From: Escherichia phage PECP20
Sequence record: OQ873415.1
Length of the DNA stretch: 64,000 nt
Strand: one strand, 5' to 3'
Positions within the stretch are counted from its first letter, which is position 1. Each line of letters opens with the position of its first letter. Made by a program: the position numbers and the translations under genes. The notes beneath the pieces were generated by a model. That model did no database searches and had not been told where the DNA came from. It saw only the letters and a program-made list of their open reading frames with translations. This document shows positions 17,219 through 23,768 of the stretch, one piece after another.

Positions 17219-17767
17219 TTAACGAGCCCATTTGATGATTTCTGTAATCAAACCATTACGTTCGCTTGCATTAAATCCTATAATTTTGTTAGCACCATCA
17301 TGATTAAGTAATTGATACGTTTGGATTTTGTTATGAATTGCAAACTCTTCAAAATGTGAAATGACTGTATTAAAACCGAATGAAGACAAAGTAATAAGGT
17401 CGTCTTCAAAACTTTCAGTCATTTCATTACGTGTTAAAATAATTGTGAACACATCATGGTTTTGGCAAAGACGAACATAGTCCTGTTCATAAACATCAAG
17501 AACAGAGTCCGCATCTTGCCGAATACGTCCATAAACCCAGTTACTAATATATCCACGGTCTAACAGATAAATCTTAGTAGGGTCTAAATAATTCAACATC
17601 GTTTCGAAACAGCCAACTTCATTTCGAGACTTAACATCGAAACGTCCATCAACTGTTCGTTTAGGAAAATCAATCTTTACATATCTTTCACTAATTTCCA
17701 TTATGTCATTAATGAAAGTTGTTTTACCAGCATTATCTGGGCCGTCTACTAAAATAATTTTAGCCAT
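17219..17767 (-). CDS. thymidylate-kinase-like P-loop nucleotide kinase
   Basis: 182 aa; P-loop GPDNAGKTT; DRGY...Y lid-like motif; occupies part of the T4 beta-gt slot. Confidence 0.7.
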   Translation of the reverse strand: MAKIILVDGPDNAGKTTFINDIMEISERYVKIDFPKRTVDGRFDVKSRNEVGCFETMLNYLDPTKIYLLDRGYISNWVYGRIRQDADSVLDVYEQDYVRLCQNHDVFTIILTRNEMTESFEDDLITLSSFGFNTVISHFEEFAIHNKIQTYQLLNHDGANKIIGFNASERNGLITEIIKWAR

Positions 17768-17768
17768 T

Positions 17769-18668
17769 TTATTCCTCGATTACGACATCTTCGTATTTAG
17801 GTATATTATATGGTGAAGAAATTAAAGCATTAAAGTAGATGAACTCACCAAGACCTGGATGGAATACTTCTTCAGGATTTTCGAAATATTGAATCTTCGG
17901 GCGTCCTTTAAGAATTTGATAGTACTCAGTTTTAGTTGGTTTAAAAATTCGAATCAGCGCTTCTTCAGGATACTTATTTCTGTCGAAGCTATTATTTGGA
18001 TCGGTTATATAAAGCGGTTGACCTAATTGAATTGCACATTCAACCACTTGTTCAAAACGATAACATGGGTCACTAATTCGAAATGGATGAAAAATACCAT
18101 CTAGATGAATAGGAGCCAAATCACCTACAAGACGCTGCATGATGGAAGGACGTATAACTTTCTGAGTTACGATAATCTTATTACCATCTGCACCTGCGTT
18201 AACCAGCACTTCTTTTTGACGTTCATTCAACACGGTAGTTTGAAGTGAACGATTAACTGACAACATATCGGTTTTTAAGAATTCGTCAATATAAAAACGT
18301 TGTTTATTAGGGTCTGCAGTGATATTGAAATTGAATTCTACATCAAAAGCGCCGCCATAACCAGTGATATCTGTGATTAGAAAATCACAATCATAATAAT
18401 CAATTAATGAATCAACCACAAATTCATTTTCAGTCCAGAAATATTTACGAGTGTTATACGCGTTATCTTTATACCATAATGGAACAAACTTAAATTCTGG
18501 GAAAAGACGTTCGCATTCTTTAATATCAGATGCATTACGTGGATATGTAATCACATCACCCGGATTAGCACGGTGCAAATGAAGTTGGAAGTTGCCATCC
18601 TTAAGGATAGCATACTGTCCAGTTTCATAAGACCGCATACTCAAGATTGGTACGCGGAAAATAGCCAT
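17769..18668 (-). CDS. hypothetical protein (299 aa) in the beta-glucosyltransferase slot
   Basis: ORF between kinase and gene 42 homolog; no similarity to T4 beta-gt recognised. Confidence 0.6.
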   Translation of the reverse strand: MAIFRVPILSMRSYETGQYAILKDGNFQLHLHRANPGDVITYPRNASDIKECERLFPEFKFVPLWYKDNAYNTRKYFWTENEFVVDSLIDYYDCDFLITDITGYGGAFDVEFNFNITADPNKQRFYIDEFLKTDMLSVNRSLQTTVLNERQKEVLVNAGADGNKIIVTQKVIRPSIMQRLVGDLAPIHLDGIFHPFRISDPCYRFEQVVECAIQLGQPLYITDPNNSFDRNKYPEEALIRIFKPTKTEYYQILKGRPKIQYFENPEEVFHPGLGEFIYFNALISSPYNIPKYEDVVIEE

Positions 18669-19384
18669 TAGTCAAGGAATCCTTTAACATAATCAAAATC
18701 ACGTTCAAACACATGGGCGCTTACCATGGTATGAGTATAATCACCAACTTCTACACCGCATTCGTTAGCGATATAATGAAGTAATTTTCCTTGGAGATAA
18801 AAATCCAACTGCATAACAACAGCACAGTTCTGAGAACGCATATGACAGTGGGTATAAAGCTTACCATCACGAATATAATAAGTTACTGAGTCAGTACATG
18901 GATATTCAAGTGTTTCGTCCGAATCAAGCAAAGCCTGATCAGAACTTTCTAGAATTTGGAACACAACTCTTCGAGAGTTAGGTTTTTCTTTAAGTTCTTT
19001 TAGAAGAGTTGGTAATTGGGCCGCAATGCGAGGGCCATAGAAAGTGTTGAAGTTCGCCGGCAAAACATCTGATTTTGGTTTAGAAATAAATTTAGCGACA
19101 TTAGGATATGCCTTAAACGCTTCTTCTGCGTTGGTACCACCAGAAATCATAAACTTCCAGAAGTCTTCGGCATATTCATAAGAGATGCGGTTAATACGTG
19201 GGTCGGTCATTTTGAATGATGATGGAGTGTCAACAACTACTGTCATAGACCCAATTTCATTACAACGTCCAATACGAGAATCAGTTACGAATTCGGGGTT
19301 TTCTAAAATTTCACGATTGACTGCTTTAAATGCGGTTTGAAAATCTGCGGCTTTGATATATTTCATTGTGTTATGTTTTCCCAT
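18668..19384 (-). CDS. 42: dCMP hydroxymethylase-like (thymidylate synthase fold)
   Basis: 238 aa; thymidylate synthase-like core (PCTDSV...MRSQNCAVV); syntenic with T4 gene 42 but diverged. Confidence 0.7.
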   Translation of the reverse strand: MGKHNTMKYIKAADFQTAFKAVNREILENPEFVTDSRIGRCNEIGSMTVVVDTPSSFKMTDPRINRISYEYAEDFWKFMISGGTNAEEAFKAYPNVAKFISKPKSDVLPANFNTFYGPRIAAQLPTLLKELKEKPNSRRVVFQILESSDQALLDSDETLEYPCTDSVTYYIRDGKLYTHCHMRSQNCAVVMQLDFYLQGKLLHYIANECGVEVGDYTHTMVSAHVFERDFDYVKGFLD

Positions 19385-19426: not shown

Positions 19427-19666
19427 TTATTTGAATTTCTTGACAATGTTGATATAACGTAAAGCTTCAGAATCTATACTTCCAAGAACACTATGAAGGA
19501 ATGCATCAGTGTAGTATTCCAATTGAACAGGTTCTTTAATCACTTTAGCCGCTTTGGTTTCAAACAGGCCCATAAGGGCCTTTTTAAGAATTTGTTCGTT
19601 AGTGTTCAGTTTCATAGTCAAAATCTCTTCGTTAAGTTTATAATTAAAACTTTTTCTAGAAATCAT
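19427..19666 (-). CDS. hypothetical protein (79 aa)
   Basis: ORF; 4-nt overlap with upstream gene. Confidence 0.5.
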   Translation of the reverse strand: MISRKSFNYKLNEEILTMKLNTNEQILKKALMGLFETKAAKVIKEPVQLEYYTDAFLHSVLGSIDSEALRYINIVKKFK

Positions 19667-20823
19667 TCCGGGTACCTCAAAGCGTCATCAGAGTTAGTTA
19701 TATCAATAATAGATATGGAGTTTTCTGCTAACCCGTTTTTAGATAATTGACGTTTATAATACCTTTCACAATATGTACACGTTGACCCACAGATTTCATT
19801 AGCACAATCAAAATCTGGATGTCTGAACCACCTTTTTTCTAAAAAGCCATCTAACAAAGAGGTTTCAATATTTACTGTATGTGAAAACTCAGTCTCATTT
19901 TCAAGAGTGAAAATAGTCTCTAAAGGCTTCCACAGTTCTAACAAATTACCTTCAAACTTTTCAGAAGCGTATGCTTCAAGAACTTTCAAAATGTAGTCTG
20001 TGCTACCTGTACGTCCTGAAACTTTGAATTGAGTGATACCAATATCATTATAAAGTTTCAAATCTTGAGGACGAACAAAACGAGTTCTCAACCAGTTAAA
20101 TGGGTCTGTATCACGAGCTTTAATACAGTGCTGCATAGGATATCCATTTAAGGATTTAGCATCATCAGCGGTAACATCAGTACTATGGAAAATATAGCAA
20201 GAGTCACGATAACTACAATGTGTTGTATACCCTTTACCAGCATTAGAACAGAACTCATTTACAAGAACTTCAAATATTATATTGTTCTTATTGCAAAACT
20301 CTGCTGCACGCTTCAGGAAAGAAACTGAACGGTTCTTATGAATTCCGCAACAGACCTTTTTGATGTTATATTGGTCATGTAAGTATTTGATTTGAGTTAC
20401 CGCATCGACATGTAGAATTGTTGAAACTTCAATCTCAATATCTTTATTGACTTCACGAACAATTTCCATAACAACAGGGTTAGCGATAGTAATACGCCAT
20501 ACGCCTATTGACCAAAGATACTGAACATAATCCTGAATAGCTTTCTTCTTCCACTCAACTAGTTCTCTTTTTGAACCAGGATTTATCGTGTTGAGTGTAT
20601 AGTTAAAGCAAATACCTAATTCGTTACAACGTTTAACGTAGTCTTCTAACATCTTTTTGTCAACGTCAGGAAGCCTAAAATCAGGTCTGGCTGCTACAAA
20701 AGCCATTTCTCTTGTAGAGCCATATACTTCGTTTATCAAGCTATTAGGATAGGTTTTATTGAGCTCTACGATTTTATCAAGAAGAGCTAAATCAAAATTC
20801 GTTCCGATTTTAAAAGTATTCAT
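19663..20823 (-). CDS. hypothetical Cys-rich protein, possible Fe-S enzyme
   Basis: 386 aa; C-terminal C-x4-C-x3-C-x-Y-C cluster plus scattered Cys; family not assigned. Confidence 0.7.
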   Translation of the reverse strand: MNTFKIGTNFDLALLDKIVELNKTYPNSLINEVYGSTREMAFVAARPDFRLPDVDKKMLEDYVKRCNELGICFNYTLNTINPGSKRELVEWKKKAIQDYVQYLWSIGVWRITIANPVVMEIVREVNKDIEIEVSTILHVDAVTQIKYLHDQYNIKKVCCGIHKNRSVSFLKRAAEFCNKNNIIFEVLVNEFCSNAGKGYTTHCSYRDSCYIFHSTDVTADDAKSLNGYPMQHCIKARDTDPFNWLRTRFVRPQDLKLYNDIGITQFKVSGRTGSTDYILKVLEAYASEKFEGNLLELWKPLETIFTLENETEFSHTVNIETSLLDGFLEKRWFRHPDFDCANEICGSTCTYCERYYKRQLSKNGLAENSISIIDITNSDDALRYPE

Positions 20824-20879: not shown

Positions 20880-21281
20880 TTATAGATTTGGTTTATATGA
20901 TTTAAATGTTTCGAATTCGCCTTTATTCATAAGAGCTTTGAATTCGTCAGGACGCATAGCTTTGTCGTCGATAATCCAATCATATACTGGTTTATGTGTT
21001 AGCAAATTATGGTACTTCAAACCAATGTTTTCCAAGTTCTGAATCAGACTTGGGAGAATGTCAATTGCTATACGACCAGGACCTACCGACTTCATACCAC
21101 GGGCAGTGTAAAGCGTTATGGTATGCCCTGCATCATACAGGGCATTAATGGCAGACACCATTTCGACGTCTGGTTTGAAGTTCACGTAATCACGATTGTT
21201 ATTCCACTCTGTTATACAATCATCGACATCAAAACAAAGATTAAGCATGTTTTCTACACGGTGCATTAGATTCGTTCCCAT
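20880..21281 (-). CDS. HAD-superfamily phosphatase (sugar-phosphate phosphatase-like)
   Basis: 133 aa; N-terminal FDVDDCIT (DxD nucleophile motif). Confidence 0.65.
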   Translation of the reverse strand: MGTNLMHRVENMLNLCFDVDDCITEWNNNRDYVNFKPDVEMVSAINALYDAGHTITLYTARGMKSVGPGRIAIDILPSLIQNLENIGLKYHNLLTHKPVYDWIIDDKAMRPDEFKALMNKGEFETFKSYKPNL

Positions 21282-22951
21282 TGATGAGTGATATCGCCGC
21301 CGATTGGACGATAGGAAACACCAGTTTCTTTATCAGTTAGTACCCATTTACCAGGATTTTTTGTAATCAGAGTAGCCGTTACAGGTTCTGCTACGTCATA
21401 ACTAATAGAGCCGTCTTGAAGTACACGGCCCATGTTACGTAATTGCTTAGTCAGAAGTTCCATACCTTTATAATATGCGGCAACCGCTTTAAGTGGATTA
21501 TTCTTGAAATAACCACCTAATGCAATCCAGATAATTGCTACTGCCAAATGATGATACTCGTTAAACGAACTCATCTTTCCATATTTGTAAACTAATGGAT
21601 TGATGTTAATAGTCAAATTACAAGTTGTTTCATCAATAGTAAACTGACCCCAGGTCGGATTAGCATTGAATTCATCATAACCTGAAACAGCATAAAGCAC
21701 TTTAGCTTCATCATACAATTTTGGCCCGTAAATCTTGGTTTCACCAAAATATCCACGAGGGTCGATAAACTTGACTTCGCCGTTATCGGTAATCATAGTA
21801 TTACTGAAGTTCGGGTCACCATGAATAACAGAGTACTGTCCCTGAGAACGGTTATGATAACGAATAAGATGTTCTAAAGCTTGTTTCAACATTGGCTTCA
21901 GACGTCCAATCTTAGTGTAGTTCACATGTGTGATTTTACCAAATGAATCAATCAATGGCTGAATGCTTTCACAACGATCAATAACTTTCGTATAGAACTC
22001 TTTAGTGAAATCACGGCGAACAGTTTCAGGACTTACAAAATAAGTGTCCGTGCTGAATTTCAGTGCATCTAAAATTGCATCAACAATTTGTGGACGAGCA
22101 AGACTTGATTTGGATTTAATATATTCAAATGCCGGCTTACCTTTAATACGTTCCATTTCAAAATTATTTTCATTTACCGAAACTAACTGAGGAACTGAAT
22201 CTGATTTCACTTTCAAATACCATGAAATCTCATCTTTTTGAAGAGCTCGACCTTGTTCGGTTAACGCGAATTTAGTTACAGTTTCTTCGCCAATTTCAAC
22301 TGCATTAAAACTACGATTCAGTTCACGAACTTCATGAGCCTTTTCAAGTTTAGGCATATCACCTAAATCAATTAGATTCATAAGCTCTGATTTATTGAAT
22401 GCACTGCCGTAAAGGAATTCTACGAAATCACGACCTTTGCAGTATTCGTGAATTTCCTCATCAGTAGAACCCATGTAGAATTCCCAGTCTTTGAACTGAT
22501 AAATTCCTACAACATTACCACCTGTTGAACCTACGTTAGTGATATTTTCACCATCGAAATTATATCGACATTCATCACCCTTAACATAGATTGCGTTAAC
22601 ATTCCAAGACCATGAACCAAAGTCAGGAATAATATCACACCAGTTAACAATTACGTTATGGCCATCTAAATCTTTGTATAATTTAGCAAGAGCATAAGCA
22701 GAACCATACGCTTCATCAACTGTACGAATAGTCACATTGAACCCTTCTTGCTCGCAATAAGCTCGAACAGTTTCAGCAAATTTTGAATGAACTACTACAA
22801 TAATTTCATCTGCGCCAAGGTCAGAATAAATTGTATACAAATTGCTCAGAATAGTGTCTTGTTTATAGTTAACAAGCACCTTAGGAATATGGTGAGTAAT
22901 TGGATATAAACGAGTTGCTAATCCAGCACCAAGAATAACAGCTTTTTTCAT
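21266..22951 (-). CDS. bifunctional sugar-1-phosphate nucleotidyltransferase / APH-type sugar kinase
   Basis: 561 aa; N-terminal MKKAVILGAGLATRLYP (RmlA-like); C-terminal HGDPNFSN...IDPRG (aminoglycoside/choline-kinase-like). Confidence 0.8.
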   Translation of the reverse strand: MKKAVILGAGLATRLYPITHHIPKVLVNYKQDTILSNLYTIYSDLGADEIIVVVHSKFAETVRAYCEQEGFNVTIRTVDEAYGSAYALAKLYKDLDGHNVIVNWCDIIPDFGSWSWNVNAIYVKGDECRYNFDGENITNVGSTGGNVVGIYQFKDWEFYMGSTDEEIHEYCKGRDFVEFLYGSAFNKSELMNLIDLGDMPKLEKAHEVRELNRSFNAVEIGEETVTKFALTEQGRALQKDEISWYLKVKSDSVPQLVSVNENNFEMERIKGKPAFEYIKSKSSLARPQIVDAILDALKFSTDTYFVSPETVRRDFTKEFYTKVIDRCESIQPLIDSFGKITHVNYTKIGRLKPMLKQALEHLIRYHNRSQGQYSVIHGDPNFSNTMITDNGEVKFIDPRGYFGETKIYGPKLYDEAKVLYAVSGYDEFNANPTWGQFTIDETTCNLTININPLVYKYGKMSSFNEYHHLAVAIIWIALGGYFKNNPLKAVAAYYKGMELLTKQLRNMGRVLQDGSISYDVAEPVTATLITKNPGKWVLTDKETGVSYRPIGGDITHQWERI

Positions 22952-22993
22952 GTTGAAGTCCTCATTGGTAAGTAGGTGTATTGTACACTATTC

Positions 22994-23136
22994 TAGTTAA
23001 AGCATTCATACTTTGCCTGTAGACCAATCATAATCCATCCAATTACAAGTGTTGGAATCATTACTGGAGCCGTTAAGCCCCAGTAGATAGTCATGGCAAG
23101 CATCAATAGTAAAAGTCCTATTGTTATTGCTTTCAT
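22994..23136 (-). CDS. small hydrophobic peptide (47 aa)
   Basis: ATGA overlap with stop of upstream SIS gene; hydrophobic; below ORF-track size cutoff. Confidence 0.35.
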
Positions 23137-23768
23137 TGTTCGCCTCGTAACATGGCACCTAGTGCACCACCAGGGTGGAACTTAAGGAAGTCATTAGAGG
23201 TAAATCCACGTTCAGACGAAAGGTTGATAGCAAACGTATCGATAAGCGCTAACAACAATGTAGTGGACATGGTCGGAGCCAGAGAATTCTCATCAACCTC
23301 TACCGCGATGCCTGTACAGAACGTATAATCAAAAAGAGCTTCGTATTCTTGCGGAATGTCAGGGTTACAATGTAACAGAATCTGTTTAACCTGAGGACGA
23401 ATCATACGAAGATGTTTAGCAACACCTATCATTTCTTCAGTCTTACCAGAACGACTGATGTGAACTAATACATCATTAGGTGCAATAAATCCTGCGTCGC
23501 CATGAGAATAATGCCCGGTGTTCAAATACATGCTAGGAATACCTAGTGAAGCAAAAGTCTCGGAAGCTTTAGTTGCGATATTAGCGTTCTTACCAACACC
23601 TGTAATAATTACTCGGCTTTCATAATTACTCAGTCCAGGGCGACGAAGAGTTTCAAGAATAGCATTATATCGGGCAGAGTTTTGACTAATTACTTTAGCC
23701 ATAGTGGCAAGAGATGAAGCTTGTTTTACGATTGCGTCAATAGCGATAGTGATTGGTGTAGTTTTCAT
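23133..23768 (-). CDS. SIS-domain sugar-phosphate isomerase (arabinose-5-phosphate isomerase-like, no CBS domains)
   Basis: 211 aa; ITGVGKNANIATK...HGDAG...ISRSGKT...HPGGALG closely resembles KdsD/GutQ SIS domain. Confidence 0.8.
   Translation of the reverse strand: MKTTPITIAIDAIVKQASSLATMAKVISQNSARYNAILETLRRPGLSNYESRVIITGVGKNANIATKASETFASLGIPSMYLNTGHYSHGDAGFIAPNDVLVHISRSGKTEEMIGVAKHLRMIRPQVKQILLHCNPDIPQEYEALFDYTFCTGIAVEVDENSLAPTMSTTLLLALIDTFAINLSSERGFTSNDFLKFHPGGALGAMLRGEQ

Follow-up and report, generated by a model that had tools for sequence, protein, structure and literature searches.

Gene order at the beta-glucosyltransferase position

The window, a 64,000-nt stretch of the genome of Escherichia phage PECP20 (OQ873415.1), contains an ORF of 299 aa on the minus strand, with an ATG start, that fills exactly positions 17769..18668 and is a real gene. 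The phage is a Mosigvirus (RB69-like, T4-like): The 7 kb around the ORF are 99.2% identical to Escherichia phage p000v and ∼97%–98% identical to many RB69-like phages. The minus-strand genes are arranged as gp41, gp40, uvsX, a Tmk-like kinase, the 299-aa ORF, a ThyA/gene-42 homolog, a 79-aa ORF, and a Peptidase_U32 (U32) protein, and onward from there as a HAD phosphatase, a 561-aa NTP-transferase/kinase, a 47-aa ORF, a SIS isomerase, and DNA polymerase gp43 (Table 1). The T4 order is 41-40-uvsX-segA-b-gt-42-imm-imm.1-43. Compared with it, the ORF, which lies directly downstream of the gene-42 homolog, occupies the position of the beta-glucosyltransferase gene, as the original prediction had claimed. 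That prediction was also right in calling the protein unrelated to the enzyme it replaces; neither T4 b-gt nor T4 a-gt has sequence similarity to it (E = 16–19), and it is 50–100 aa shorter than both. Homologs of T4 a-gt, T4 b-gt, and the RB69 glycosyltransferase gp3 were all absent from the window.

The 561-aa protein has a Pfam NTP_transferase domain in its N-terminal part, weak kinase matches in its C-terminal part, and NCBIfam matches to sugar-1-P nucleotidylyltransferases; the RB69 record splits this gene into p052/p053, a split corrected experimentally by Thomas et al. 2018. The RB69 counterpart of the 47-aa ORF is annotated as 'similar to T4 42-imm intercistronic region.' The gene at 19663..20823, which had been put forward as a second candidate for the DNA-modifying transferase, drops out of that role, as its Pfam match (PF01136) identifies a Peptidase_U32 Fe–S protein.

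Table 1. Genes of the minus-strand cluster around the 299-aa ORF
Feature	Position	Strand	Basis or remark
Tmk-like P-loop nucleotide kinase (RB69 gp45)	17219..17767	-	phrog_761 thymidylate kinase, E = 5.6e-45
GT-B-fold glycosyltransferase, 299 aa	17769..18668	-	Intact ortholog of RB69 gp46:47
ThyA/gene-42 homolog, 5-hydroxy-dCMP synthase (RB69 gp48)	18668..19384	-	Pfam Thymidylat_synt; RSQN (D169N) signature
79-aa protein (RB69 gp49)	19427..19666	-	phrog_8601, no function; close relatives only, minority of loci
Peptidase_U32-family Fe–S protein (RB69 gp50)	19663..20823	-	Pfam PF01136, E = 7.3e-11; weak UbiU match
HAD-type sugar phosphatase (RB69 gp51; HY126 AfhF counterpart)	20880..21281	-	TIGR01689 capsule biosynthesis phosphatase, E = 1.9e-13
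Bifunctional NTP-transferase + sugar kinase, 561 aa (RB69 gp52:53; HY126 AfhE counterpart)	21266..22951	-	
47-aa hydrophobic ORF, between 561-aa gene and SIS isomerase	22993..23136	-	RB69p054
SIS-domain arabinose-5-phosphate isomerase (RB69 gp55)	23133..23768	-	Pfam SIS; phrog_5670, E = 2.1e-116

An intact counterpart of RB69 gp46:47

At this locus, the RB69 record annotates two small ORFs, RB69p047 and RB69p046. The 299-aa gene is ∼97% identical to the pair at the DNA level over its full length. The RB69 reference (NC_004928 24597..25497; L001 2098..2998) has one T more than the window and other Mosigvirus genomes have, and this T breaks the frame. Judged by sequence, 17769..18668 corresponds to RB69 gp46:47 in unbroken form. 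Lee et al. (NAR 2026, PMC13326640) describe RB69 genes 46 and 47 as one ORF split by a sequencing error, and the joined gp46:47 was modeled there and labeled, as a putative function, 'arabinosyltransferase 1.' RB69 gp46:47, DLP3 gp79, and Rhizobium phage RL38J1 gp215 ('arabinosyltransferase 1 / galactosyltransferase 1' in the same paper) are the same gene as ours and differ from it in nothing essential; the RB69 gene has the same place after the 5-hydroxy-dCMP (5hodCMP) synthase.

The original prediction had called the protein an orphan, and by annotation it is one: It has no Pfam family at E ≤ 0.1 and no NCBIfam match, and its PHROG (3891) is without function. By distribution it is not. A tblastn search found homologs in 345 phage records, from phages of Escherichia, Acinetobacter, Klebsiella, Shigella, Serratia, Enterobacter, Proteus, Yersinia, and other hosts. 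In a collection of 5.8 billion proteins, the family forms 136 clusters, the top one (P0001) 98% identical to the window protein. A deep profile search of 1.84 billion representatives returned a closed set of 232 relatives and did not reach cellular glycosyltransferase (GT) families. Sequence similarity to curated GT families was likewise undetectable, and PDB sequences gave no GT, whether searched with the single protein or with the family profile (E ≤ 10).

Across 40 diverse members, 37 columns are invariant. The conserved motifs are SMRS, KDGN, DITGY, NFNI, FPFRxSD, TDPN, and HPG, of which SMRS, KDGN, FPFRxSD, TDPN, and HPG are invariant in all 40, the window protein included, and are kept in RL38J1 gp215.

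A minimal GT-B fold and a candidate active site

An AlphaFold2 model of the 299-aa protein (pLDDT 94.4, pTM 0.88) has a GT-B fold, with two Rossmann-like beta/alpha/beta domains and an interdomain cleft, at the minimal size of ∼300 aa. Comparing the model with known GT folds, the check proposed along with the original prediction, gave GT-B neighbors in Foldseek and not nucleotidyltransferases. They include 3c4q and 6kih, also the structural neighbors of RB69 gp46:47, and are mostly retaining GT4-type enzymes, a likeness that does not fix the stereochemistry of the reaction.

Retaining GT-B enzymes of the GT4 type, namely MshA, BshA, PimA, WaaG, and sucrose-phosphate synthase, share only 7%–13% sequence identity with the 299-aa protein and are ∼60–100 residues larger. 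We rejected membership of GT4 (Glycos_transf_1), as neither a PF00534 match nor an NCBIfam GT match was found; PF13439 is missing too. The EX7E motif is absent at the family level among the 40 members: The window protein does contain E267-x7-E275, but E267 occurs in one of the 40, and only the second acidic residue is conserved. We also rejected the NDP-sugar pyrophosphorylase family, since the ORF matches neither PF00483 nor PF12804, whereas the 561-aa neighbor has both.

A GT-B enzyme is expected to bind the nucleotide sugar through its C-terminal domain, the diphosphate by basic residues and the ribose by a Gly-rich loop with an acidic residue on the next helix. Candidates for these residues are R197, K246, H270-P271-G272, and [ED]275, which are fully or almost fully conserved in the 40 members and, in the model, sit at the expected strand-to-helix transitions. 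Thomas et al. equated Glu-281 of gp3 with the ribose-binding Glu of GT-B enzymes; the profile alignment of our candidate site to gp3 E276...E281 was not significant. From conservation and the predicted fold, we infer the following residue roles. UDP-Araf would sit in the C-terminal Rossmann domain, with R197, K246, and the H270-P-G-x-x-[ED]275 loop-helix as candidate ligands. The N-terminal domain would present the acceptor 5-OH through the invariant SMRS and KDGN loops together with R33, Y66, N69, and R74. The reaction is most likely metal independent, as in a GT-B enzyme, and the anomeric configuration would be retained, giving an alpha linkage.

The modified base and the sugar donor

RB69 and its relatives have mono- and di-arabinosylated 5-hydroxycytosine (5hoC) in their DNA, with dC undetectable (also PMC13390438). 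The modification is beta-D-Araf-(1→3)-alpha-D-Araf, joined to C5 by an ether link. For virion DNA, the accessible parts of the published accounts name mono- and di-arabinosylated species only, with bare 5hodC unreported in them. The hydroxyl is put on dCMP by a ThyA homolog that, unexpectedly, works as a hydroxylase dependent on flavin and O2 and whose hallmark is an Asn where E. coli ThyA has Asp169, and 5hodCMP synthase activity has been demonstrated for RB69 gp48 (PMC13326640). The ThyA homolog in the window is 99% identical to this verified synthase and has the RSQN motif, and the modified base is therefore 5-hydroxycytosine and not hmC. The idea of a DNA-modifying transferase acting on hmC is right in part: A transferase role is likely, but the base is a different one. 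The T4 enzymes, whose action on DNA is proven, transfer glucose to the CH2OH group of hmC, whereas for the 299-aa protein the putative reaction is the transfer of arabinofuranose to the ring 5-OH of 5-hydroxycytosine.

For the sugar, the SIS isomerase, the 561-aa kinase/uridylyltransferase, and the HAD phosphatase form a proposed route from ribulose-5-phosphate to UDP-arabinofuranose. The isomerase would supply D-arabinose 5-phosphate from ribulose 5-phosphate, and the 561-aa protein makes the UDP-arabinose donor (PMC6024577, PMC13326640). HY126 AfhE and AfhF are reported as biochemically characterized, AfhE with UDP-arabinose pyrophosphorylase activity. The role of the HAD phosphatase in UDP-arabinofuranose synthesis is credited to He et al. 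as cited in PMC13326640.

A synthase–GT–kinase trio conserved in two phage families

The synthase stop overlaps the GT start (TAATG), and the kinase starts one base past the GT stop, with GAGGA ahead of its start. Signs of separate regulation were absent: No minus-strand terminator lies inside the trio, and promoter-like matches were below chance (18 vs. 27.4 ± 5.7). The 299-aa GT is translationally coupled to the synthase and the kinase.

We surveyed 56 viral-contig loci together with RB69 and Thanatos. In almost every informative locus, including those in which GT identity falls to 33%, a same-strand ThyA homolog lies ∼700 nt upstream of the GT. These upstream homologs carry RS[QEN]N, with one exception (RSQS in L052), so the GT co-occurs with the D169N type of ThyA. 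In most loci, the gene next after the GT encodes a Tmk-like kinase. Together, 5hodCMP synthase, GT, and Tmk-like kinase form a trio that is kept across ∼50 loci in two phage families (Straboviridae and Pootjesviridae); genes for UDP-arabinose accompany the closer relatives only.

The trio does not depend on the type of sugar. Rhizobium phage RL38J1 (Pootjesviridae) carries galactose as its base-proximal sugar. The phage has the trio as gp216-gp215-gp214, and gp215 matches the family profile with 99.3% probability (E = 2.3e-20) and all signature motifs. The same trio with arabinose or galactose as the sugar indicates that the 299-aa family follows the acceptor and not the donor. A group of IMG/VR contigs (L031–L044) encodes GTs that are 37%–40% identical to ours, in ∼350-aa versions with ∼50 aa extra at the C terminus. 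Their loci keep the ThyA(D169N)–GT–kinase trio and have no arabinose-activation genes within 10 kb; these phages may put a different, host-supplied sugar on 5hoC.

RL38J1 also has both a Tmk-like and a gp1-type kinase within 5 kb. The gp1-type dNMP kinase converts 5hodCMP to 5hodCDP and is enough for 5hoC incorporation into DNA in E. coli. Since it already handles 5hodCMP, the conserved Tmk-like kinase is left with no assigned substrate.

Fusion proteins account for 18 of the 260 family members. In eight distant members, a Tmk-like kinase is fused to the C terminus of the GT, in the order of the separate genes. A profile of these C-terminal extensions matches the Tmk-like protein of the window (E = 4.3e-5 in a 10-sequence search), and the fused kinases and the window protein share a P-loop and [TD]R...S[DN]xVY; one of them, P0234, matches Pfam Thymidylate_kin (E = 1.2e-4). 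Nine members (P0143, P0152, P0153, P0155, P0170, P0173, P0206, P0225, and P0248) have a HAD-like extension of ∼155–190 aa at the N terminus with a KdsC/HAD-like signature (DFDGIF...GDS...GDD), and P0143 has a weak Pfam Hydrolase match. In P0191, an N-terminal extension of 139 aa is of unrecognized type. Searching the fusion extensions with the window Tmk-like and HAD proteins as single sequences found nothing, and a profile of the N-terminal extensions had no detectable match to the window HAD protein. Fusions and operon order link the proteins in a pathway, not necessarily in consecutive steps.

A probable division of labor with gp3-type GTs

RB69 gp3 was proposed as an arabinosyltransferase in 2018 (Thomas et al.), and its HY126 ortholog has a crystal structure (PDB 9iqz). 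It has no sequence relationship to the 299-aa protein (BLAST E = 3.2; hhalign probability 0.06), and with an alignment this poor, residue equivalences to the solved HY126 enzyme could not be set.

The two families differ in how they are distributed. The gp3-type family, encoded outside the window, is narrow (five clusters, 211 phage records) and variable in copy number: It occurs once in Mosigvirus-type Escherichia/Shigella phages and in two places per record in Acinetobacter phages, and it is absent from the Klebsiella, Serratia, Yersinia, Proteus, Shewanella, and Rhizobium phages that have the 299-aa family. Published modification levels run from one pentose in Thanatos through two in RB69 to three in DLP3. 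Against these one, two, or three sugars stand zero, one, or two gp3-type copies, always one fewer than the sugars. The 299-aa family is present in a single copy in all phages reported with one, two, or three sugars. As gp3-type copy number tracks the extra sugars and the 299-aa family occurs once everywhere, the latter is left as the base-proximal transferase.

The first sugar and its acceptor

Taken together, fold, context, and distribution make it probable that 17769..18668 encodes a GT-B glycosyltransferase that adds the first alpha-arabinose from UDP-D-Araf to the 5-hydroxyl of 5hoC, with DNA the likelier acceptor. The ThyA homolog just upstream would make the nucleotide of the acceptor base; the neighboring isomerase, bifunctional kinase/uridylyltransferase, and HAD phosphatase would make UDP-D-arabinofuranose; and the second arabinose would then come from the sequence-unrelated gp3-type GT. 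The preference for DNA follows the T-even precedent.

Some evidence runs against this assignment. The family lacks both detectable sequence similarity to curated GT families and a family-level EX7E motif, it is acidic, and its Thanatos member is reported to form UDP-xylose. In the literature surveyed, He et al. 2026 and Mahler et al. 2025 aside, transferase activity has been demonstrated for no member of the family. Purified single DLP3 GTs with UDP-Araf or UDP-Arap did not arabinosylate 5hoC-DNA (Lee et al., data not shown; PMC13326640), and the Thanatos ortholog did not transfer xylose to plasmid DNA, dCMP, dCTP, or cytosine (PMC12838424). The Thanatos acceptors lack the 5-OH, which makes that negative result uninformative.

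The strongest alternative keeps the GT chemistry and moves it to free 5hodCMP: The Tmk-like kinase would phosphorylate the glycosylated nucleotide, the polymerase would incorporate arabinosyl-5hodCTP, and later sugars would be added on DNA. Several observations speak for this order of events, including the translational coupling of the trio and its conservation in two phage families, the eight GT–kinase fusions that keep the gene order, and a Tmk-like kinase in excess of the gp1-type enzyme that suffices for 5hodCMP. The inactivity of single GTs on 5hoC-DNA points the same way, as does the missing mention of bare 5hodC in what is accessible of the virion DNA accounts, and Lee et al. commit to no level for the first transfer. 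On the other hand, every characterized phage pyrimidine sugar hypermodification takes place after replication (PMC13326640 restates this T-even paradigm), the third arabinose demonstrably goes on at the DNA level (Lee et al.), and 5hodCTP is evidently usable by the polymerase. Fusions and operon order prove a pathway link only, and the Thanatos ortholog glycosylated neither dCMP nor dCTP, though both are without the 5-OH. The family is uniformly acidic (median pI 5.1), which might seem to favor a free nucleotide; yet T4 alpha-GT, a true DNA enzyme, is mildly acidic too (pI 6.1, and 6.3 for gp3), so charge does not discriminate DNA binding, and we discarded it as a test. On balance, transfer at the nucleotide level is unlikely. 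If true, it would be, to our knowledge, the first case of a sugar hypermodification made on a DNA precursor before replication, and it would break with the T-even paradigm of sugars joined to completed DNA.

Far less plausible is a role in activating the sugar, with no transfer, as an NDP-pentose pyrophosphorylase, the activity reported for Thanatos TH1_063. That protein is a true ortholog (48% identity, E = 5e-87), and LC-MS/MS found UDP-xylose, from UTP and xylose-1-phosphate, with TH1_063 and not in the no-enzyme control (PMC12838424). As this was the only control in the published assay, we infer that a co-purified host uridylyltransferase is possible there. The fold is GT-B and not that of a nucleotidyltransferase, and there is no Pfam NTP_transferase signal; a dedicated NTP_transferase-domain protein lies four genes upstream, and its HY126 counterpart AfhE is the reported UDP-arabinose pyrophosphorylase. 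The family is moreover present where sugar-activation genes are lacking within 10 kb (L031–L044) and in the galactose-modifying RL38J1. The weakest candidate is an epimerase or hydrolase of sugar nucleotides with a GT-B fold, like UDP-GlcNAc 2-epimerase, tailoring the donor and not transferring it, to which many of the top Foldseek matches point (4neq, 1f6d, 7vza; E around 1e-6); we hold it to be highly improbable and reject it, like the pyrophosphorylase, on fold, context, and distribution.

A U32 protein near the 5hodCMP synthase

For RB69 gp50, the counterpart of 19663..20823, Lee et al. give no more than the label 'sugar or heterocycle reductase.' The U32 family includes RlhA (ho5C2501 in 23S rRNA), TrhP (ho5U34 in tRNA), and UbiU/V, which are required for anaerobic, prephenate-dependent ubiquinone hydroxylation (PMC5727448, PMC6599085, PMC10990095). 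By analogy with these enzymes, a possible role for the phage protein is hydroxylation of cytosine at C5 without O2. Because the ThyA-type 5hodCMP synthase of the phage depends on O2, a phage living in the gut might require an anaerobic substitute for it, in the way that T4-like phages have one ribonucleotide reductase for aerobic and another for anaerobic conditions. The cysteines C158, C177, C192, C203, C209, and C233 and the cluster C340-x4-C-x3-C-x2-C352 are retained in phage U32 proteins down to 45% identity.

The U32 gene occurs in 221 phage records, with Enterobacterales and Shewanella hosts. At most three of these records, and probably none, are from Acinetobacter phages, whereas the GT is found in 57 Acinetobacter phage records. 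E. coli phages of the JS10/IME08 type are an exception and have no U32 gene within 10 kb.

Four IMG/VR contigs (L051, L053, L054, and L056) have very distant GT homologs (∼25% identity) with a U32 homolog downstream that is 45%–50% identical to that of the window. The gene orders are primase, ?, dUTPase_2-like, Tmk-like, GT, U32, Pol III alpha in L051 and polB, His_Phos, DUF1937, HAD, ?, GT, SIS, NTK-like, U32, Cpn10 in L053. No gene with a Thymidylat_synt domain was found in the roughly 20 kb covered on each of the four contigs, which would fit a U32 protein standing in for the ThyA-type hydroxylase in these viruses.

Implications for Mosigvirus genomes

Earlier work describes the gene, its fold, and the role proposed for it (PMC13326640; in outline PMC13390438), and with that role in print, our identification contributes little that is new. 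The comparative evidence presented here, that is, the copy number of gp3-type GTs, the trio across two families and different sugars, and the GT–kinase fusions, strengthens the assignment.

Arabinosylated 5-hydroxycytosine shields the genomes of Mosigvirus, many phage-therapy candidates among them, from restriction enzymes, and the cited literature credits it with protection from the Brig1 DNA glycosylase and type I CRISPR-Cas as well. Transfer of the base-proximal sugar is the key step in this pathway, and the enzyme that performs it is a potential tool for making glycosylated DNA. Our analysis sharpens a question left by the literature, namely at which level, DNA or nucleotide, the first sugar is attached.
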